64,000 bases of DNA, taken from Candidatus Moraniibacteriota bacterium. GTDB taxonomy: Bacteria > Patescibacteriota > Minisyncoccia > Moranbacterales > UBA1568. The notes under the pieces are model-generated. The model did not search any database and was not told the DNA's origin. It was given only the letters and a program-made list of their open reading frames with translations. The position numbers and the translations under genes were made by a program. Location: contig CP064989.1 of NCBI GenBank assembly GCA_016699875.1, positions 85,380-149,379 on the forward strand, in the 5' to 3' direction. Of this stretch, positions 29,230 to 40,821 are shown piece by piece (positions within the stretch are counted from its first letter, which is position 1; every line of letters begins with the position of its first letter).

Positions 29230-29796
29230 TTACTCCTCCCCCAGAGGGAATTCTTCCAGCACTTCATAGTGCAAACCTTCCGCTTTTGAAAACGTGCTCT
29301 CGAAGAGCGTGAGACTCGAAACAGGAATTGAAACTCGCCAGGATGAGGCGAGGATAGGCTTCTCACGAAGCGCCTCCCACTTCTCTTTGCGGATGCGAGC
29401 AAGCGTGATATGCGGACGGAAATGCTTTCGAGGCGCTGTCGCCATATCCAATGCCTCTTCAAGTCGATTTGCCAGCAAAAGCAATTCCGCACTTTCTTCT
29501 CCCGAAAACCACAGCATATTTCCCTTCTCCGAAGCATCGCCCTCCTTGTGTGAGAAATCTATTGTGTCAAGCGCCACATCGAACGATTCAGTAGCCAGAC
29601 ACACCTCAGCAATGCGCGACACGATCTCGGAAATATCCTCATCGCCTCGAAATCCCAGGAAAAGCACCGTCACGTGCAAATTCCGCTCTTTGGTAAGACG
29701 AAGCGGCAGAGATGTCCATTTTTCCATCCGTACCGAGAGCCGCCTCGCCACTTCCGCCGGGATACGAACTCCCAAGAATATTTTCCGCGCCTTCAT
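29230..29796 (-). CDS. thpR: RNA 2',3'-cyclic phosphodiesterase (2H phosphoesterase, LigT/ThpR)
   Basis: Two H-x-T/S-x motifs (HVTVLF and HITLAR). Start at MKARKIF placed just after the dnaJ stop. Confidence 0.65.
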   Translation of the reverse strand: MKARKIFLGVRIPAEVARRLSVRMEKWTSLPLRLTKERNLHVTVLFLGFRGDEDISEIVSRIAEVCLATESFDVALDTIDFSHKEGDASEKGNMLWFSGEESAELLLLANRLEEALDMATAPRKHFRPHITLARIRKEKWEALREKPILASSWRVSIPVSSLTLFESTFSKAEGLHYEVLEEFPLGEE

Positions 29797-29800
29797 AGCC

Positions 29801-30895
29801 TTATTTTTCAATATCCCGAAGAGCTTCAAAAAGCCTTTTCTCCTCGCGCGAAAGATGCTTCGGAACACGCACCGTCACCGTCACCAAGTGATCTCCTCTC
29901 CCCCACGAACTCCCTACCGGAAGAAGCCCTTTGCTCCGAATGCGAAACACCTCGCCCGACTGCGTGCCGGCAGGAACTTTCATAGATACCAATCCATCAA
30001 TTGTCTCGACATCCACCGTATCGCCAAGCGCCGCTCGCACAGCAGAGACAGAAATATTCGAAAGCACATCATTGCCTCGTCGCGAAAAGACCGGGTGCGG
30101 TCGCACATGCACCGAAACCAAAAGATCGCCCGGCTGGCTCCCCGCCTCTCCCGCCTCGCCCTCACCCGAAAGCGAAAGCATCTGCCCATCCTCGATACCG
30201 GCCGGGATATCCAACGGAATTTCATCGGTTTTTTTCACACGTCCCGAACCGCGACACTCCAGACATTTCTCCGCATACACTTTCCCGCGCCCACCGCAAT
30301 CGCCACACACTTCCGCTTGCTGAAATGTCCCTAAGATACTCCGTACCGTTCGCCTCACTTGTCCGGCGCCATGACATGTCGGACAGTTTTGCTCTTTCGA
30401 CCCGCGCTTGCCGCCCGTGCCTGAACACAAAGAGCACGCCACTTCTCGTCGAAGCGAGAGCGTTTTCCGCACGCCAGCCGCCATTTCCTCAAATGAAATT
30501 TCAACGTCTACCTGAATGTCAGATCCGCGCCGCCGCGACCGACTGCCTCTTGACCGGCCGCCACCGAAAATATCCGAGAAAATATCTTCGAAACCCCCCT
30601 CAAAATGAAAGTTGCCATTCGAGAATCCCTCGAAGCCGCGGCCGAAATCGAAACCGCCAAACCCGGCACCTCCGCCGCCACCCTGCGAGAACGTCTCGCC
30701 GAACTGGTCATACTGCGCCCGCTTCTCTTTATTCGAAAGCACCTGGTACGCCTCATTGATCTCCTTGAACTTTGCCTCGTCGCCACCCTTTTTATCCGGA
30801 TGATGCGCATGTGCGAGCTTTCGATACGCCTTCTTAATCTCGTCCGCCGACGCCCCTCGGGCAACACCAAGTGTCTGATAGTAATCCTTCGCCAT
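29801..30895 (-). CDS. dnaJ: Molecular chaperone DnaJ
   Basis: MAKDYYQTLGV...HPDK J-domain, Gly/Phe-rich linker, four CxxCxGxG zinc-finger repeats. Confidence 0.9.
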   Translation of the reverse strand: MAKDYYQTLGVARGASADEIKKAYRKLAHAHHPDKKGGDEAKFKEINEAYQVLSNKEKRAQYDQFGETFSQGGGGGAGFGGFDFGRGFEGFSNGNFHFEGGFEDIFSDIFGGGRSRGSRSRRRGSDIQVDVEISFEEMAAGVRKTLSLRREVACSLCSGTGGKRGSKEQNCPTCHGAGQVRRTVRSILGTFQQAEVCGDCGGRGKVYAEKCLECRGSGRVKKTDEIPLDIPAGIEDGQMLSLSGEGEAGEAGSQPGDLLVSVHVRPHPVFSRRGNDVLSNISVSAVRAALGDTVDVETIDGLVSMKVPAGTQSGEVFRIRSKGLLPVGSSWGRGDHLVTVTVRVPKHLSREEKRLFEALRDIEK

Positions 30896-31032
30896 AGTCA
30901 GAAAGTATACAAGCAATGCTTTCAGTCTACCCCAAACTCAAAAAATTAGCAATCACCAAAAGTGAGTGCTAATTCCAAAGACTGCAGAGATACATTTACG
31001 AAAAAGAGCGAACTACAAGCGCTATATTGCTG

Positions 31033-31431
31033 TTATCGCTTAGTAATTTTATCAAAATTGAACATGAAGTTCTTGTTGTTCAAATCATGCTCCCATATTC
31101 GTATTACGTTCCACCCGAGTTTTTTGTAGTGGAGAGTAACCTCTTTGTCCCGTTCCTTATTTCGGGAAATCTTCTTCATCCAAAATTCTTTTCGAGTTTC
31201 CGGAATAGAACCATGTCTCTGGCATCCGTGCCAGAAGCATGAATCCAAAAATAGCACAGTTTTGTATTTTGGTAGAACTAGATCGGGTTTACCATGATAT
31301 TTCTTTGAATTTTTTAAGTATCTGAATCCCCGCTTCCAAAGTTTCTTTCTAAAATCAACCTCGATTTTACTATCCTTACTCTTAACTTTAGACATTATCT
31401 CACTCCGCTTCCTGTCCGTGTAAATGTCCAT
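31033..31431 (-). CDS. vsr: Very-short-patch-repair endonuclease
   Basis: SKIEVDFRKKLWKRGFRY...FLDSCFWHGC motifs of Vsr. Confidence 0.85.
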   Translation of the reverse strand: MDIYTDRKRSEIMSKVKSKDSKIEVDFRKKLWKRGFRYLKNSKKYHGKPDLVLPKYKTVLFLDSCFWHGCQRHGSIPETRKEFWMKKISRNKERDKEVTLHYKKLGWNVIRIWEHDLNNKNFMFNFDKITKR

Positions 31432-31439
31432 ATAAAGAC

Positions 31440-33083
31440 CTACAGCACAACTGCATTATCTAACCTGTAATACAGGTGAGAAAGTAGTGCAAGCGCATCC
31501 AGACAATCACGGTCAGTATATAATCCTGACTGTCCCAAATCTTCAACCTCTTCATGTGAAATTGGATCTCTGAATGCGTCCCACATTGCGAGTGCAAGCA
31601 TTCTATGACCTTCAGTGATATTTTTGACAGTATCAGCCTCAAACGAATCGCCGTTTGGCTTACTAAAAGCATCGGTAACTGACATTTTTGGATTTTTGAG
31701 CGCAAACACATTTTCGATCAGGTTTCGGTCCGTGATCGTAGAGCTGGATTTTGCCTTTAGATTATTTATGTACTTTTTTACTCCTTCGAACACAGCGGTG
31801 TAGTAGTTGCCATCCTTATAATAACGAAAGGCCAAAGTCTTTAATTCGGGGTGTAGGTTTCTCCAGTGAAAATATGGATATGGCTTAATGATTTTCTGCA
31901 ATCCTTTCAAGCTGCTTGTGAGATCGTCATCTGCAAGTTCAGATTCACTAAGTAGGGCGCCGATAACGGGGTCAAGATCATCCTTTATTTCTTCTGGAAT
32001 GTGGCTTCGCCATTCGCCAATACTCATTCCTGTTCGTTTTTCGGCTTCTTCTGCACGCAAATCTGCTCGTTTTCTGCGCCAATCTCGTTCAAGCGAATTA
32101 ATCATCCTTTGTAGACACAGTTTAAGTTTCTGCATCTCAGGATGACCCCAGTTGAGAGCTTGACGGTTTGTCGATATCACATCTTCGTCTAGCTCATCTA
32201 TATAGTCCACTTCAAGCCAGCCAGTCAAATACGAAAAGAAGTGGCTTGATGTGCTGTCAGAAAAGTATTCCGGAAGATTAACGAGCTTTTTGCGAGAAAA
32301 TAACGTAATACCTCGCATATTTGTACGAGGTGAAATTGGTTTCTTTGTTGCAATCAAATGTCCTGATATCTTATCTTTTACTTCGCATTCCCATTCTTCT
32401 GCCAGATCATTGGGGATACTCCACTCAACCTCCTTATCCAAATCGTTGTATTTTCGTTCGTTCTCAACCGGCACTGTATCACCATCGTTAAGTTGTATAG
32501 AAATTCCAAAATCCTCGTCCACAATGAACATTTTTGATAGACTATTGGCTACTTCTTCAGCATCAAAATCCGATTCGCGTTGGATTTCTCTCAGCATAAC
32601 GGTGGTTCCCATCTCATCTCCACAATCTTCATCATTGATAACAACTGTTGGGTGGTACTCTTTTTCTTCAGCTTGAATTTCATCCCATCGAAGCTTGAAT
32701 GTATTATGCTTACCGGCTTTCTTTGTGGATATTTCCACTTCGTGAGCTATGCCAAAAAATGATAGTTTTCCTAAACCTTTTTTGCCAATTATCTTTCGGC
32801 CGCCTGGACTAACATCTGTTTGATCCTCGTGACGACGGTCGCGGCCAATCATCAGAAACTTTTCGTCAATTTCTTGAAACGTCATTCCATGACCATCGTC
32901 TGACACAACAATTTCTTTATTCGTGCCGTCGTCCAGAAGATGAATATGTACTTGTTCCGCATCCGCATCATACGCATTAGCAACAAGCTCTGCCAATACG
33001 GGTGGCAAAGTTGAATATAGCCGAACGCCCAGGTGCTTTATGGTGCGCGGATCGAATTTCATTGTCAGTGTTGGCTCAGGCAT
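31440..33083 (-). CDS. GHKL-superfamily (HATPase_c_3, MORC-like) ATPase with C-terminal R-x4-H (HEPN-like) domain
   Basis: Bergerat-fold boxes: N-box ELVANAYDA, G1 DDGHGMT, G2 GKKGLGKLS. The C-terminal ~170 aa carry WDAFRDPISHEE (R-x4-H). 8-bp overlap with dcm and an 8-bp gap to vsr imply one operon. Confidence 0.7.
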   Translation of the reverse strand: MPEPTLTMKFDPRTIKHLGVRLYSTLPPVLAELVANAYDADAEQVHIHLLDDGTNKEIVVSDDGHGMTFQEIDEKFLMIGRDRRHEDQTDVSPGGRKIIGKKGLGKLSFFGIAHEVEISTKKAGKHNTFKLRWDEIQAEEKEYHPTVVINDEDCGDEMGTTVMLREIQRESDFDAEEVANSLSKMFIVDEDFGISIQLNDGDTVPVENERKYNDLDKEVEWSIPNDLAEEWECEVKDKISGHLIATKKPISPRTNMRGITLFSRKKLVNLPEYFSDSTSSHFFSYLTGWLEVDYIDELDEDVISTNRQALNWGHPEMQKLKLCLQRMINSLERDWRRKRADLRAEEAEKRTGMSIGEWRSHIPEEIKDDLDPVIGALLSESELADDDLTSSLKGLQKIIKPYPYFHWRNLHPELKTLAFRYYKDGNYYTAVFEGVKKYINNLKAKSSSTITDRNLIENVFALKNPKMSVTDAFSKPNGDSFEADTVKNITEGHRMLALAMWDAFRDPISHEEVEDLGQSGLYTDRDCLDALALLSHLYYRLDNAVVL

Positions 33084-34194
33084 TGGACTTTACGTTACCA
33101 TCAACAGACTTTATGATTTGCTCACCCAAGATTCTTGCAAACTCGGGAGGAACTGCATTACCAATCATTTTGGCAACATCCGCTGTGTTTGCGCTGATAA
33201 ACTCGTAACTTTTCGGAAAGGTTTGCAGTGTTGCTCCTTCGCGAAGTGAAATGCCTCGATCCTCTTCTGGATGAGCGAACCGACCATTGCTGATGCTATA
33301 AAACTTGGTGGTGATTGTGGGAGAAGGTTTGTCCCACCACATACGACCGTAAGTATCAGAGAATTTCTTTTTCTTGCCGTCATCAGATGAGAAACAGGCG
33401 AGCGCATGGCTTTTCTTGCTTTGCCAAACACTGCGATCCCCTCCATCCTTTGGCGTCATCCTCAAACGATCCAGGTTCTTTTTGCTCAAGCCGGCCACGG
33501 TGTGCATCCGCTTTGTTCCATCTTTATGTCCGGCAACCACTACCGCAAACCCATTGTTCACGCCGATAGCATCCCTGACCGTTCTACGCTTTTTTATTGG
33601 TTTTGGCAACTCGACACCGGCTACCCGCGAGGCCAACAGCGTAAAGCGTCGACGTCTTTGCGGAATGCCATACTCAGACATATTCACAACATGAAAATCA
33701 TTGAACTTGTACCCGATTTTCTCGATCGACTTTATAAATGAATTTATGGGACCGCCTTTTTTCGAAGAAGAAATCCCCGGGACGTTCTCCACCAAAATAT
33801 ATCCGGGCATGAAGTATTCAACGTATTTCTGAAAATCGAGAATAAGATTTTTTGTCTTCTCAGACCTCTTCTTGCTCGTGCGGATAATACTCCAGAATTG
33901 ACACGGAGCGCATCCGGCAAACAGAAGATTATCATCACCTCTCCTTAAATTCAAATCTTTCTCCATGCCCTTTGGTGAATAGCTAGTCACATCTCTATCC
34001 AAAAACACCGCCCCCGGATTGTTTTTTTCATATGTTTCTTTACAGATACTATCGTTATCTACCCCTGCAATCACATTAATACCAGCCATGCGTAGACCAT
34101 ACGTAAGACCACCAGCACCTGAAAAGAAATCCACTGCTTTAATTCTTCCATTTTTTACCACTTTAAGAGGGTTCGACATCGACATATCTTTCAT
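33076..34194 (-). CDS. dcm: DNA (cytosine-5)-methyltransferase
   Basis: Motif I DFFSGAGGLTYG, motif IV PCQFWS (PCQ), motif VI ENVPG. Classic C5-MTase. Confidence 0.85.
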   Translation of the reverse strand: MKDMSMSNPLKVVKNGRIKAVDFFSGAGGLTYGLRMAGINVIAGVDNDSICKETYEKNNPGAVFLDRDVTSYSPKGMEKDLNLRRGDDNLLFAGCAPCQFWSIIRTSKKRSEKTKNLILDFQKYVEYFMPGYILVENVPGISSSKKGGPINSFIKSIEKIGYKFNDFHVVNMSEYGIPQRRRRFTLLASRVAGVELPKPIKKRRTVRDAIGVNNGFAVVVAGHKDGTKRMHTVAGLSKKNLDRLRMTPKDGGDRSVWQSKKSHALACFSSDDGKKKKFSDTYGRMWWDKPSPTITTKFYSISNGRFAHPEEDRGISLREGATLQTFPKSYEFISANTADVAKMIGNAVPPEFARILGEQIIKSVDGNVKSNA

Positions 34195-34332
34195 TTACAT
34201 AGAATCAAACCAAATCACGAAAATCAAAAAGCCTGCACCCAAGATACATCCAGATTGTACCACTAAACACATTGCCACTCTCAAGAGAGTATGTCCGAGG
34301 CGATAAAGCGAAAAAAATTTAAAAAATGTAGC

Positions 34333-35376
34333 CTACAATCCATTTTTGGCTTTATTCTTCACATGCTCCTCGAAGGTTTTGGAGAAGAAGGTTTGGCCGG
34401 TTTGAGGGTTATTGAGGAAGAAGTAGTAGTCGTTGGCGATCGGGAAGAGCGCGGCGCGAAGCGAGACAAGTCCCGGATTCGATATGGGTCCGGGCGGAAG
34501 CCCCTTGTTGGCGTAGGTATTGTAGGGCGAATCGACGGCGATATCTTCGGCGGAATGCTGAATCTTTGTCGCGCCGCCTCGCGCGTACTGCACCGTCGCA
34601 TCACTCTCAAGCGCGTGCCCATCGGCAAGCCGTCGCCAAAAGAGATCGCTCACCATTCCCCGTTCGCGTACGATATCTTCCGCAGACTGTCTCGCCGTGC
34701 CGATCTCCCGCTCGACGATACTCGCCATCGTCACAATCTCGAGAATACTCTTCCCTTGTCGCATCGTCTCCGTTTGCATATCAGCTGTGAAGCGCGTCTC
34801 GAAATTCCGAAGCATTTTCGAAATGATATCCTCCGGAGTCGCCGAGAGAAGAAACGTGTACGTATCCGGAAAGAGAAATCCCTCGAGCGACGCGCGCTCC
34901 GGCACACCCGCCAGCACCGGATATTTCTCACGCCACTCAGCAAGCGGGTTCGTAACCAGCGCCAAGAATCCATTGCCGTCAAACTCGTTCGCCGAGAGTC
35001 GAGCGGCCATCTGTTGAGCCGTCCATCCTTCGGGGAATGTCAGCGTGATCTCCTTTGGCTTCCCGTCATTCAAGAGGAATATCGTCACCACTTCCGGCGA
35101 GGTGAGTTTTCCGGGGATTACAAAATCCCCTGCATGAATCTTTCCTCGGAGACCCCCCAGCCACGCGCTCCACAAGAAATACCATCGTGATACCACAAGA
35201 TGCTCGCTCTCAAGGCGATTCGCTACCGAGAACACGTTTTCATGCTCATTGATATGAAAGAGCCGCTCCCCAACAAATTCGCTCTGTACTGATTTCGCTC
35301 GATAGACAAAAACACCAGCACCAATGCCAGCAAAAATACACAACCCAAGGAATCCAAACAAAAGCCTCCTGAGCAC
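34333..35376 (-). CDS. mltG: Endolytic murein transglycosylase MltG (YceG-like)
   Basis: N-terminal TM, YceG domain with GLPPGPISNPG and YYFFLNNPQTGQTFFSKTFEEH. Confidence 0.85.
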   Translation of the reverse strand: MLRRLLFGFLGLCIFAGIGAGVFVYRAKSVQSEFVGERLFHINEHENVFSVANRLESEHLVVSRWYFLWSAWLGGLRGKIHAGDFVIPGKLTSPEVVTIFLLNDGKPKEITLTFPEGWTAQQMAARLSANEFDGNGFLALVTNPLAEWREKYPVLAGVPERASLEGFLFPDTYTFLLSATPEDIISKMLRNFETRFTADMQTETMRQGKSILEIVTMASIVEREIGTARQSAEDIVRERGMVSDLFWRRLADGHALESDATVQYARGGATKIQHSAEDIAVDSPYNTYANKGLPPGPISNPGLVSLRAALFPIANDYYFFLNNPQTGQTFFSKTFEEHVKNKAKNGL

Positions 35377-35380
35377 AAGA

Positions 35381-35827
35381 TTATTCTAATTCTTTCCGCA
35401 TATCTTCAAGCCATTGCTCCAGTGTTTTTCCATTTTGAGCCGCCAATGTTCTTTGCTCATCCATCCATCCGGGGACCTCGGAATCCACTATTACTTGAAA
35501 TCGTTTCGCCCGTTTTTCATCCTCCTCTGTCCAGCCTGCCGGTCTCTTTCCTCTCTTAGAAGCTAATAAAGTTTTCCACTCTTCCACTTCATTTGTTAGC
35601 TTCCGCTGGAATTGTATCCAGCTTTCTAGTGACATTCCTGAAGATTGTGCCAGCCGTCTTTGTTCTTCAATTGGAAGGTCCAAAACATCCTGAACTTTTC
35701 GATTTTCTTTGTGCCCTATCCATAAGCTCTTTCCTATTGTTTGTTCAAATGATTCCCTTTCAAGAACAGCTAATTCCTTTTGACGTTTATTTAATCGGTA
35801 AATCCAGAACAGTGTGCATAGCGACAT
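35381..35827 (-). CDS. Hypothetical protein with internally repeated helical motif
   Basis: 148 aa. Repeated ..SLESWIQFQRKL.. / ..TLEQWLEDMRKEL.. segments. No family recognised. Confidence 0.4.
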   Translation of the reverse strand: MSLCTLFWIYRLNKRQKELAVLERESFEQTIGKSLWIGHKENRKVQDVLDLPIEEQRRLAQSSGMSLESWIQFQRKLTNEVEEWKTLLASKRGKRPAGWTEEDEKRAKRFQVIVDSEVPGWMDEQRTLAAQNGKTLEQWLEDMRKELE

Positions 35828-39156: not shown

Positions 39157-40821
39157 TCACACCACCGGGCGAGCGGATTCTTCTTCGGCTTCTTTGAGAA
39201 GTTGGGGTTGTCTCAAGAAGCGAGAGACAATGAAGCAGCGAACGCTTTCGAGTTCCTCTATTTTGAGAAGCCAAGAAGCCGCGATAAATGCGGCAATACC
39301 AAGCGCTCCGGACAATACCAACTCCGAGAAAACATCGAAAAACGTATCTAACTCGACGTTTCCAAGTCCGAAAAAAAACTTGCCCGCCTGCACGGCAAGC
39401 AAGGCGGCAAGAGATGCGATCGTCACCTTACTAAAAGACATGAGAAACGATCGATCATCCCATCCCTCGACTCGCCTCCGAAGAAACACGTAGAGAAGAA
39501 ACGCATTCGCCACACTTGCAATAGAAAAGGACAGAGCGAGCGAGAGTGCGCCCCACTCCCCAACAAAGACAGCCAGAATGGCAATATGAATCGCCTCAGA
39601 GAAAGCGGCAAGGAGAAGCGGCGTCTTGGTATCTTGCAAAGAGAAAAATGCTCGAGCAAAGAGCGGGATAAGACTCTGCGCAAAGAGACTAATCGACAAG
39701 ACGCCGAGTATTTCAAATGTCATACGCGTATCCTCCCAGTCGAAGTGTCCCGTTCCCAGTATGACGCGCACGATCTGCGCGCGAAGCGCAATCATCATAA
39801 AACTCACCGGGATCACAAAGAACAATACTTTTCTCGATGTTTTCAAAAGCATATCGGAGAATCGACGGCGTTCATCCTTAGCGGCGAATCCGGAAAGCGT
39901 TGGAAACGCCGCGAGAGAGAACGCCACACCAAAAAGTCCCAAAGGAACGCTTTGAATATTATTGGCAAGCGTAAAAGCGGCGAGCGTCCCGGAAGCAAGT
40001 GCGGACGCAAAAAATGTCACAACAAGAAAACTCACCTGTCCCACTGCAATCCCCAACGAACGCGGCACCATCAGTCGTACCACCCGCCAAACTTCTCGGC
40101 TCACCGCCGAAGCGGCATGAAACGAAAATTGAAATCCCGCTTTTCGTACGCTTGGGTACTGCACCAACGCATGGAATATCGTTCCCAGGACGACGCCCAT
40201 GGCAAGACCGATCGGACCGAAAAACCGCGCAAAAATAACCGCACCGAGAATGATGCCGACATTGTAGAAAACCGGCGCCAAAGAAAAAACAATGAAATTT
40301 CGAAAAGAGACCAGCACGCTCCCAAAAACAGCGCTTACTCCAAGAAATATCGGCCCGATCAGCATCACGCGAGTGAGATTCGTAGCAAGAAGCTGTTTCT
40401 CCGGTGAAAAACCCGGAACAATCGCCCGCATTATCGGCCCCGCAAAAATAGCCGAGAGCACAGACACTGCGCCAAGCAAAATAATGAGCAACAAAAATAC
40501 TCCGCCAGCAAGATCCCACGCGGATTGCTCGCTCTTCTTCTCGCGCAGCTCGGTAAAGACCGGCACAAATGCCGCCGAGAGCGCTCCGGCAACAAGCAGT
40601 CCGTAGAGAAAATCCGGGATACGAAACGCGGCGTAATACGCATCAAGCACATCACCCGCACCGAATGTTCCCGCAAGAATTCGATCCCGGACAAAGCCAA
40701 GCAATCGACTTGCTATACCAAAGACAGCAATCACCAATGCCGCGCCACTCACCGTCCTGTTTGCTCTCCCATGAAACAAAGAAACAAGCAGCCTCCGTAC
40801 CCGAAATAAAATCCCCCTCAT
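39157..40821 (-). CDS. murJ: Lipid II flippase MurJ (MviN)
   Basis: About 14 TM helices. N-terminal LGFVRDRILAGTFGAGDVLDAYYAAFRIPDFL MurJ signature. Confidence 0.85.
   Translation of the reverse strand: MRGILFRVRRLLVSLFHGRANRTVSGAALVIAVFGIASRLLGFVRDRILAGTFGAGDVLDAYYAAFRIPDFLYGLLVAGALSAAFVPVFTELREKKSEQSAWDLAGGVFLLLIILLGAVSVLSAIFAGPIMRAIVPGFSPEKQLLATNLTRVMLIGPIFLGVSAVFGSVLVSFRNFIVFSLAPVFYNVGIILGAVIFARFFGPIGLAMGVVLGTIFHALVQYPSVRKAGFQFSFHAASAVSREVWRVVRLMVPRSLGIAVGQVSFLVVTFFASALASGTLAAFTLANNIQSVPLGLFGVAFSLAAFPTLSGFAAKDERRRFSDMLLKTSRKVLFFVIPVSFMMIALRAQIVRVILGTGHFDWEDTRMTFEILGVLSISLFAQSLIPLFARAFFSLQDTKTPLLLAAFSEAIHIAILAVFVGEWGALSLALSFSIASVANAFLLYVFLRRRVEGWDDRSFLMSFSKVTIASLAALLAVQAGKFFFGLGNVELDTFFDVFSELVLSGALGIAAFIAASWLLKIEELESVRCFIVSRFLRQPQLLKEAEEESARPVV

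Follow-up and report, generated by a model that had tools for sequence, protein, structure and literature searches.

What does an ATPase do in the place where a restriction-modification (R-M) operon would carry its restriction enzyme? The question is raised by three consecutive minus-strand genes in the window, by which we mean the whole 64,000 nt stretch of Candidatus Moraniibacteriota DNA that was analysed. The first gene, dcm (33076..34194), encodes a C5-cytosine DNA methyltransferase (M) of 372 aa. It is followed by the gene for a 547 aa protein (31440..33083), which we call the R-slot protein or R, and then by vsr (31033..31431), which encodes a very-short-patch-repair T:G mismatch nickase (V) of 132 aa. 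As originally described, dcm and vsr flank the 547 aa gene closely: in the list of open reading frames the dcm stop codon overlaps its ATG by 8 nt (33076–33083) and the vsr ATG lies 8 nt beyond its stop codon (gap 31432–31439). This spacing may reflect translational coupling, a term we prefer to the "co-translation" first proposed. The dcm product matched PF00145 (7e-53), TIGR00675 (131 bits, cutoff 100.65) and PADLOC MTase_II (1.6e-88), and its translation shows the PCQ and ENV catalytic motifs. The vsr product matched PF03852 (8e-28) and TIGR00632 (119.7 bits, cutoff 97.85). The R-slot protein, which is identical to the NCBI entry "TIGR02391 family protein [Candidatus Moraniibacteriota]", matched HATPase_c_3 (1e-23, covering residues 27–145), PF09509 Hypoth_Ymh (2.6e-12, 47.1 bits, cutoff 25) and TIGR02391 (52.4 bits, cutoff 39.45). 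The domains predicted for all three proteins are far above chance.

The three genes make up an inserted cassette of 3,358 bp (30975..34332, minus strand) that begins after the stop codon of mltG and ends at the conserved region upstream of dnaJ. A close relative (locus L023; identity to the window of 86% for MltG, 88% for DnaJ and 97% for UPF0047) carries the empty site, with dnaJ directly after mltG, and in a blastn comparison its homology ends at window position 34333 and restarts at 30974. GC content is 0.40–0.46 within the cassette versus 0.50–0.55 in the flanks. The cassette, with the gene content M + R + V, is a horizontally acquired, self-contained and mobile unit. A nearby LigT-like 2H phosphoesterase gene was rejected as a member because the empty-site relative carries it too, and an AT-skew anomaly at 39–41 kb was rejected as a related feature, as it corresponds to the gene for a 554 aa membrane protein. 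A promoter and terminator scan of 30700–34600 returned fewer sites than were found in shuffled controls and was therefore uninformative.

The R-slot protein begins with a GHKL (Bergerat) ATP-binding domain (residues ~1–170; 32574..33083, minus strand), assigned from the HATPase_c_3 match and from invariant motifs. The Bergerat motifs noted at the outset (ELVANAYDA, DDGHGMT and GKKGLGKLS) are all present in the translation, and motifs I–IV are invariant in alignments, the invariant residues being E32, N36 and D39 (motif I), D62, G64 and G66 (motif II), G100-K-K-G-x-G-K-L107 (motif III) and T160. AlphaFold2 (AF2) secondary structure and Foldseek place a beta-rich, S5-like transducer domain next (residues ~171–312; 32148..32573, minus strand), which is the best conserved part of the GHKL + transducer chassis, followed by a long helical linker of low sequence conservation (residues ~313–400; 31884..32147, minus strand; AF2 helices 315–351, 364–380 and 385–398). 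Foldseek aligned the N-terminal ~400 columns to Hsp90 N+M and to the ATPase modules of MORC2/3 (target-normalised TM of 0.45–0.49 to the latter). R has the arrangement of paraMORC/MORC-like proteins (Iyer et al. 2008), in which an S5-like transducer follows the GHKL domain and the gene has R-M neighbours. In all 16 non-redundant HEPN-class loci the gene directly upstream of R is dcm. The proposal of a MORC-like GHKL ATPase beside R-M genes is supported. PMC3710099 names the fusion partner of Ymh only as "paraMORC", without a family number. A profile of the whole family searched against PDB sequences found generic GHKL domains only (Hsp90, MutL) and no solved family member, and no methyl-sensing or sequence-reading domain was evident in the structure model of R.

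The remainder of the protein (residues ~401–547; 31443..31883, minus strand) belongs to the Ymh/TIGR02391 family of HEPN domains, so that R as a whole joins a GHKL ATPase of paraMORC type to a Ymh-family HEPN. The original prediction had pointed to a HEPN-like R-x4-H in this region, to be checked by a search for a HEPN/TIGR02391-like fold; the C-terminal domain indeed has an all-alpha HEPN fold, in addition to the PF09509 and TIGR02391 matches above their cutoffs. The motif, R505-D-P-I-S-H510 (31554..31571, minus strand; from the translation and its conservation), sits within WDAFRDPISHEE. Its R and H are invariant in the alignment of close homologs. Among 54 diverse representatives, 46 (85%) have R-x4-H, five more carry K for R and three have a degenerate motif. 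The canonical R-N-x3-H form occurs in 45/54, although the window protein has R-D in place of the family-typical R-N. HEPN nucleases are metal-independent RNases that leave 2',3'-cyclic phosphate and 5'-OH ends (PMC11162769). Searches of Pfam, NCBIfam and PADLOC at E-values up to 0.1 gave no match to PD-(D/E)xK, HNH, GIY-YIG or PLD nucleases in the R-slot protein. There is no conserved acidic cluster in its tail among homologs, and the only HEPN-class-specific residues in the first 400 aa are R336 and P400; we therefore see no sign of a cryptic DNase. The domain content supports the earlier view of R as a candidate ATPase-coupled nuclease or Abi effector rather than a classical restriction endonuclease (REase).

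The R-slot protein has more than 1,900 homologs, and a chassis search at E ≤ 1e-30 gave 370 representatives; the family spans CPR bacteria, DPANN archaea, Neisseria and Burkholderia. REBASE classes it as putative Type II REases, and the label "putative restriction enzyme" has been attached to it since about 2000. The closest described systems are NmeAI of Neisseria meningitidis and NgoAXIV of Neisseria gonorrhoeae, which have the same three genes as the window (PMC2441816, PMC3787668), in the order M-R-V at the gonococcal locus (L009) as here. Their R proteins share the GHKL + Hypoth_Ymh architecture, as reported for R.NmeAIP (PMC2441816). A tblastn search of the gonococcal chromosome with R gave a single detectable homolog, the NgoAXIV-locus R gene (36% identity over residues 1–544, E 1e-112); the window dcm is 50–54% identical to the methyltransferase of that locus and the vsr products are 53% identical. 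The two differ in host (a CPR bacterium versus Neisseria), in the motif (R-D-x3-H in the window, R-N-x3-H in the NmeAI/NgoAXIV type) and in the state of R, which is intact in the window but interrupted by two in-frame stops in the gonococcal sequences that were compared. From these sequence comparisons, the cassette is almost certainly an NmeAI/NgoAXIV-type module (REBASE subfamily R.NmeAIP), an already catalogued kind. What the window contributes is a further instance and some comparative detail; the type of system is not new. Searching the literature for experiments on GHKL-HEPN fusions turned up no such study.

In NmeAI, an M + R + V system, M methylates C5mCGG (PMC3787668, PMC4676702, PMC7973814). 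The TRD of the window dcm is only 48% identical to that of the gonococcal CCGG enzyme, so a shared target is only putative. With an O/E of 0.96, CCGG shows no depletion in the window. GGCC is depleted (O/E 0.41) and is the most depleted 4-mer palindrome in the window as well as across the pooled flanks of eight host loci; its depletion may reflect other systems because GGCC avoidance is common, and the attempt to assign a target to dcm by site depletion failed. Comparison of dcm with solved methyltransferases gave core matches only (Dnmt1, HaeIII, HhaI), which carry no inference about specificity.

A sister class of proteins has the same chassis with a D..ExK PD-(D/E)xK domain where the HEPN would be. 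HEPN is carried by 54 of 58 short proteins versus none of 41 long proteins, the long, PD-(D/E)xK class being defined as 600 aa and longer. Invariants common to both classes are G241, G258, Y285, G288, T305, R307 and W312. The BbrUII/HgiDII family (NF050001) has an N-terminal GHKL + transducer chassis of ~380 aa that is homologous to that of R (231.8 bits; residues 7–378 to profile positions 2–399 of 659), and these enzymes also adjoin C5-methyltransferases. However, their C-terminal ~250 aa form a PD-(D/E)xK domain (D520/E534/K536 conserved in 35–36 of 40 proteins), whereas R has HEPN there. Membership of R was rejected, as its score lies below the 550-bit cutoff and its C-terminus is different. 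The VcSduA protein of Vibrio cholerae (paraMORC3, Shedu type I-D) resembles R in layout, with a GHKL ATPase and a C-terminal nuclease effector, and the dimer predicted for it is clamp-like in its middle domain (PMC12137116). It combines GHKL with PD-(D/E)xK, and neither the ATPase nor the nuclease is dispensable for its phage defence (PMC12137116). Its effector is a DUF4263 PD-(D/E)xK DNase where R has HEPN, and it is a single-gene system without a methyltransferase, whereas R is paired with dcm. A profile scan for DUF4263 (SduA_C) gave no match in R and weak matches in sister-class proteins only, so Shedu membership of R was rejected.

Because one conserved sensor chassis carries a DNase in one class and an RNase in the other, we infer that the HEPN domain is the effector. 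The best-supported reading, to which we give a probability of roughly 0.4–0.5, is an RNase or abortive-infection mechanism. The C5-methyltransferase marks the host's own DNA, and Vsr repairs T:G mismatches arising from deamination of 5-methylcytosine. R would form a dimeric clamp, driven by ATP, that engages DNA and reacts when the cognate methyl mark is missing, alone or via the methyltransferase; it would then switch on the paired HEPN domains as a metal-independent RNase. This RNase would halt translation and so abort infection or plasmid establishment; the restriction arm would cut RNA, not DNA. Against this reading stand the REBASE classification, the gonococcal preprint discussed below, the lack in the model of an evident domain for reading sequence or sensing methylation, the R-D of the window protein and the three degenerate motifs among the 54 representatives. 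In its full form, an R-M system with a non-DNA-cutting arm, in which a methyl "self" mark is read by a MutL/MORC-like clamp that triggers a HEPN RNase in methylation-licensed abortive infection, the proposal is a tentative one, somewhat short of an even chance.

The alternative of genuine DNA restriction, in which the GHKL-HEPN protein makes double-strand breaks at unmethylated CCGG-like sites, alone or via Vsr or an unlinked nuclease, as the REBASE label "R" implies, we consider unlikely. The R slot stands beside an m5C methyltransferase at every locus, and the sister proteins HgiDII and BbrUII, with the same chassis, were named as REases (PMC2441816). A 2026 gonococcal preprint partly attributes in vivo cuts at unmethylated CCGG to the homolog of R: 5'-CG-overhang cuts at CCGG are lost in a strain that lacks both ngoAXIV and ngoAXIII, the RM1R1 deletion phenotype is complementable, and a phenotype is described for the N-terminal GHKL fragment alone, with none reported for the HEPN fragment (10.64898/2026.01.10.698803). 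The cut mapping is described, however, for the double-operon deletion only and comes without biochemistry (10.64898/2026.01.10.698803). As the gonococcal chromosome has a single detectable homolog of R, the enzyme of the second operon is unrelated and could make all of the CCGG cuts. A route through Vsr is suggested by MutL, itself a GHKL ATPase, which in Neisseria and E. coli binds Vsr and enhances its activity (PMC6116569), and the Vsr nick and the C^CGG cut fall at the same phosphodiester position; a more exotic variant is that a MutL-like ATPase could turn the co-encoded Vsr into a restriction nuclease at unmethylated sites. Against this, vsr is present in 7 of the 16 non-redundant HEPN-class loci and absent from the other nine; judged by gene content, Vsr is an optional accessory that is dispensable to the conserved dcm-R pair. 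DNA cleavage by R itself is opposed by its lack of a DNase domain or conserved acidic cluster and by the reliance of HEPN chemistry on the RNA 2'-OH (PMC11162769), and CCGG is not depleted in the window. Literature searches for HEPN proteins that cut DNA (SPARHA) yielded no usable result.

A Ymh-HEPN/paraMORC fusion has been proposed as an analogue of PrrC/RloC (PMC3710099), anticodon nucleases that, like R, couple an NTPase to a HEPN-type RNase and are linked to R-M, although their ATPase is of the ABC type and not GHKL, their partner is a Type I R-M system and they share no sequence homology with R. Such a guard, silenced by the methyltransferase or an unlinked restriction enzyme and firing only when a phage neutralises that partner, not on direct sensing of unmethylated DNA, would suit the locus (L013) where the dcm-R pair is embedded in a Type I R-M/Fic island. 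It seems improbable here: there is no further restriction gene inside the cassette in the window or at most other loci, and the cassette moves as a unit with M only, with or without V. Still less probable is a non-catalytic HEPN that binds a ligand or nucleic acid, as in sacsin and MtlR, the protein being an addiction module or a factor with a regulatory or epigenetic role and no nuclease activity, as non-catalytic HEPN families typically lose the R-x4-H motif (PMC3710099), which is retained here. We regard as very improbable a MutL-like accessory for Vsr repair of 5-methylcytosine deamination damage: the GHKL gene does adjoin vsr, and very-short-patch repair likewise joins a GHKL+S5 ATPase to a Vsr nickase and a Dcm-type methylase (PMC6116569, PMC2292703), but MutL is a housekeeping repair factor without HEPN, dcm persists at the loci that lack vsr, repair leaves the invariant catalytic residues of HEPN without a role, the mobile cassette occurs in defence-island-like contexts, and the sister class carries a DNase and has VcSduA, of proven anti-phage function, as a relative (PMC12137116).

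The CPR copy is intact and compact, with a defined insertion boundary, which makes it a convenient construct. For the family as a whole, a large group of proteins called "putative restriction enzyme" carries no DNase domain. If DNA is cut, the family would provide either the first HEPN-associated DNase or a MutL-like ATPase that licenses Vsr. If the effector is an RNase, as we favour, these would be R-M systems that punish unmethylated DNA by cleaving RNA, and the line between restriction and abortive infection would be blurred.

Translation of the window bore out the three minus-strand ORFs and the sequence motifs of the original prediction. These are dcm, encoding a 372 aa C5-methyltransferase (33076-34194; PF00145, 7e-53; TIGR00675 above cutoff), a middle gene encoding a 547 aa protein, here called R (31440-33083), and vsr (31033-31431; 132 aa; PF03852, 8e-28; TIGR00632 above cutoff). 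The first two genes overlap by 8 nt and a gap of 8 nt separates the middle gene from vsr. The N-terminal part of R matches HATPase_c_3 (1e-23, residues 27-145) and its C-terminus matches PF09509 (Hypoth_Ymh, 2.6e-12) and TIGR02391 (52.4 bits against a cutoff of 39.45), which supports the proposed architecture of a GHKL ATPase with a HEPN-like R-x4-H tail. In PADLOC, two "REase_II" models matched the N-terminus only, while the C-terminus matched an Argonaute-associated HEPN model and PD-Lambda-3_B.

R is a 100% match to an NCBI entry, "TIGR02391 family protein [Candidatus Moraniibacteriota]", on a 1.09-Mb contig. Its homologs number more than 1,900, and the 120 best are all approximately 545-580 aa long, 54-78% identical, and carry the same pair of Pfam domains. 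We aligned 31 of the best 120. The Bergerat residues are invariant in this alignment (E32, N36, D39; D62, G64, G66; G100-K-K-G-x-G-K-L107; T160), as are R505 and H510, the two residues of the R-x4-H motif on whose conservation the prediction depended. Among 54 more diverse representatives with the HEPN domain, 46 retain R-x4-H (45 of them as R-N-x3-H), K replaces R in five, and the motif is apparently degenerate in three.

The cassette is an insertion among housekeeping genes. In a close relative known from a metagenomic contig (UPF0047, MltG and DnaJ 97%, 86% and 88% identical, respectively), dnaJ comes directly after mltG; homology with this empty site breaks at window position 34333 and resumes at 30974, delimiting an inserted segment of 3,358 bp with a GC content below that of its flanks. 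The insertion point lies immediately upstream of a CIRCE-like inverted repeat, TTAGCACTC-N9-GATTGCTAA (30946-30972, minus strand), which is located just upstream of dnaJ, is kept in the empty-site relative, and has one mismatch to the HrcA operator consensus. Beside the cassette there is another small insertion specific to this strain, a 148 aa ORF without a Pfam match (35381-35827, minus strand) that separates the UPF0047 gene from mltG. It is missing from the empty-site contig L023 and from the relatives L024, L025 and L028, in all of which UPF0047 directly precedes mltG. Two genes downstream of the cassette is a LigT/2H phosphoesterase gene (29230-29868, minus strand), whose family acts on the 2',3'-cyclic phosphate ends of RNA; the empty-site relative has this gene too, so it is a resident and not a cassette component. 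Elsewhere in the window, a strong AT skew at 39-41 kb (up to 0.37) corresponds to a 554 aa multi-pass membrane protein ORF (39157-40821, minus strand) that by eye looks MurJ-like, and the skew there is ordinary.

We surveyed 16 non-redundant loci of the HEPN class, including the window. Eight (L001-L008) are from Saccharibacteria, Ignavibacteria and Parcubacteria-type MAGs and one "Methanoregula" MAG contig. The others are from a gonococcal chromosome, a Burkholderia megaplasmid, a Woesearchaeota contig, a 2.1-Mb contig, and three of four full-length contigs in a viral collection, the fourth (L017) being left out as a duplicate of the gonococcal locus. In all 16 loci, the gene immediately upstream of R encodes a C5-methyltransferase. 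In seven there is also a vsr gene, either downstream of R or upstream of dcm, and one locus is embedded in a Type I R-M/Fic island. The "Methanoregula sp." contig (L006) closely resembles a Patescibacteria contig (L004), with identical dcm match statistics and similar R ones; it may be mis-binned and therefore should not be taken as evidence of archaeal spread. On the Woesearchaeota contig (L011/L012, 3963-11277) the dcm-R pair is just upstream of grpE-dnaK-dnaJ, and the window cassette is likewise beside dnaJ, which may be a coincidence or a preferred insertion neighbourhood.

The association of prokaryotic MORC-like GHKL ATPases with R-M genes, cited as known in the original prediction, has precedent. 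ParaMORC GHKL+S5 ATPases were defined from R-M operons with DCM and Vsr among their neighbours (Iyer et al., PMC2292703), and Ymh was classed as a HEPN family fused to paraMORCs in R-M neighbourhoods, with an analogy to PrrC/RloC proposed (Anantharaman et al., PMC3710099). The REBASE subfamily R.NmeAIP was described as an N-terminal GHKL plus a C-terminal "Hypoth_Ymh" domain, and R.HgiDII as GHKL with a C-terminal part that was left unassigned (Orlowski & Bujnicki, PMC2441816). Meningococcal NmeAI has genes for modification, restriction and patch repair, and its methyltransferase, M.NmeAI, produces C5mCGG (PMC3787668, PMC4676702, PMC7973814). In two gonococcal chromosomes, R of the window is matched over its full length by the gonococcal R (36% identity, E 1e-112), the dcm and vsr on either side of the latter are 50-54% and 53% identical to those of the window, and the gene order (M-R-V) is the same; the gonococcal vsr (423 bp) has the length of the published ngoAXIVV gene. 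At this gonococcal locus (L009, NZ_CP119142.1, 2933-6072), two in-frame stops separate a 297 aa GHKL ORF from a 198 aa HEPN ORF, and dcm is apparently frameshifted with an early stop, although vsr is intact; the duplicate L017 has the same pattern. A 2026 preprint also describes a split gonococcal R but a complete M (10.64898/2026.01.10.698803), which is either a strain difference or a discrepancy. The PLSDB "plasmid" records NZ_CP119142.1 and NZ_CP119140.1 are 2.17-Mb N. gonorrhoeae chromosomes, almost unannotated (17 features), a data-quality issue of that plasmid collection. The NmeAI/NgoAXIV type is a kind of system known from computational descriptions of 2008-2013, and the window locus adds a new member to it that is intact and was inserted recently.

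The N-terminal region of R is common to a second class of enzymes. Residues 7-378 align to positions 2-399 of the 659-position NCBIfam model "BbrUII/HgiDII family restriction enzyme" (NF050001), with a score of 231.8 bits, far below the 550-bit cutoff. When the N-terminal 400 aa of R were searched against 1.84 billion representative proteins, 370 matches at E≤1e-30 fell into two length classes. The HEPN domain is present in 54 of 58 proteins of 530-600 aa but in none of 41 proteins of at least 600 aa. NF050001 matches the long proteins along its entire length. These proteins also have weak matches to PD-(D/E)xK families (SduA_C, NucS_C, HSDR_N_2), and 35-36 of 40 retain a D520...E534-x-K536 triad; C5-methyltransferases adjoin their genes too. 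Every ATPase and transducer invariant is common to both classes, so a single ATPase chassis bears a DNase in one class and a HEPN domain at the equivalent position in the other. Within residues 1-400 almost no conserved position is specific to the HEPN class (only R336 and P400), and comparison of the class alignments found no conserved acidic cluster in its tail; the HEPN class therefore gives no sign of a hidden DNase.

Among 4-bp palindromes in the window, GGCC is the most depleted (66 observed, 159 expected; O/E 0.41, z -7.4). GGCC likewise ranks first for depletion when the flanks of the eight other host loci, L001-L008, are pooled (66 against 127.5 expected; O/E 0.52), and is below expectation in each of them. 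GGCC could be the target of the window methyltransferase or of another, unseen GGCC system. CCGG is not depleted across the 64-kb window (O/E 0.96), and the target-recognition domain (TRD) of the window dcm (residues 200-285; 33340-33597) shares 48% identity with its counterpart in the CCGG-specific gonococcal enzyme. Partner TRDs in L001-L017 are of two types, 41-57% and 29-34% identical to that of the window. In the Woesearchaeota locus L011, a TRD of the second type accompanies an R that is 55% identical to ours, no less than the R proteins of first-type partners, so M and R lineages seem to have been shuffled. For NmeAI, the M and R phylogenies are likewise described as incongruent in the literature. 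Taken together, the two observations suggest that the DNA sequence may not be read by R itself.

Three features of R are established: its ATPase site is intact, so is its HEPN site, and it is obligatorily paired with a C5-methyltransferase; beyond these, we infer the mechanism. The HEPN nucleases characterised so far are RNases that need no metal and generate 2',3'-cyclic phosphate and 5'-OH ends (PMC11162769), and DNA cleavage by the HEPN domain of R is unlikely because this chemistry requires a 2'-OH. In the relative VcSduA (GHKL plus PD-(D/E)xK), phage defence depends on the ATPase as well as the nuclease, and the protein is predicted to dimerise, with a middle domain resembling a clamp (PMC12137116). 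On this basis, the best-supported model is that R would be an ATP-driven dimeric clamp, responsive to unmethylated DNA, that activates its paired HEPN RNase domains; the methyltransferase would protect self DNA and Vsr would be an optional repair accessory. The structure model of R shows no reader domain for methylation status or DNA sequence.

The main rival to this RNase model is that the system truly restricts DNA. According to the January 2026 preprint, gonococcal DNA is cut in vivo at unmethylated CCGG, leaving 5'-CG overhangs, and the cuts vanish on deletion of both the ngoAXIV and ngoAXIII operons; loss of the GHKL fragment, which is the first ORF of the split R gene of ngoAXIV, causes a complementable decrease in pilin antigenic variation (10.64898/2026.01.10.698803). 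In the text available, the cut mapping covers the double deletion only and no biochemistry is presented. We detected a single R homolog in the gonococcal chromosome, so the enzyme of the other operon is unrelated and could explain the cuts. Neisseria Vsr nickases are stimulated by MutL (PMC6116569), so in a variant of this rival the GHKL protein may act together with Vsr; vsr is missing from nine of the 16 loci, which speaks against this being the mechanism in general. The activity of a "restriction enzyme" whose sole nuclease-type domain is that of an RNase is a real and testable question, and one that predates this window.
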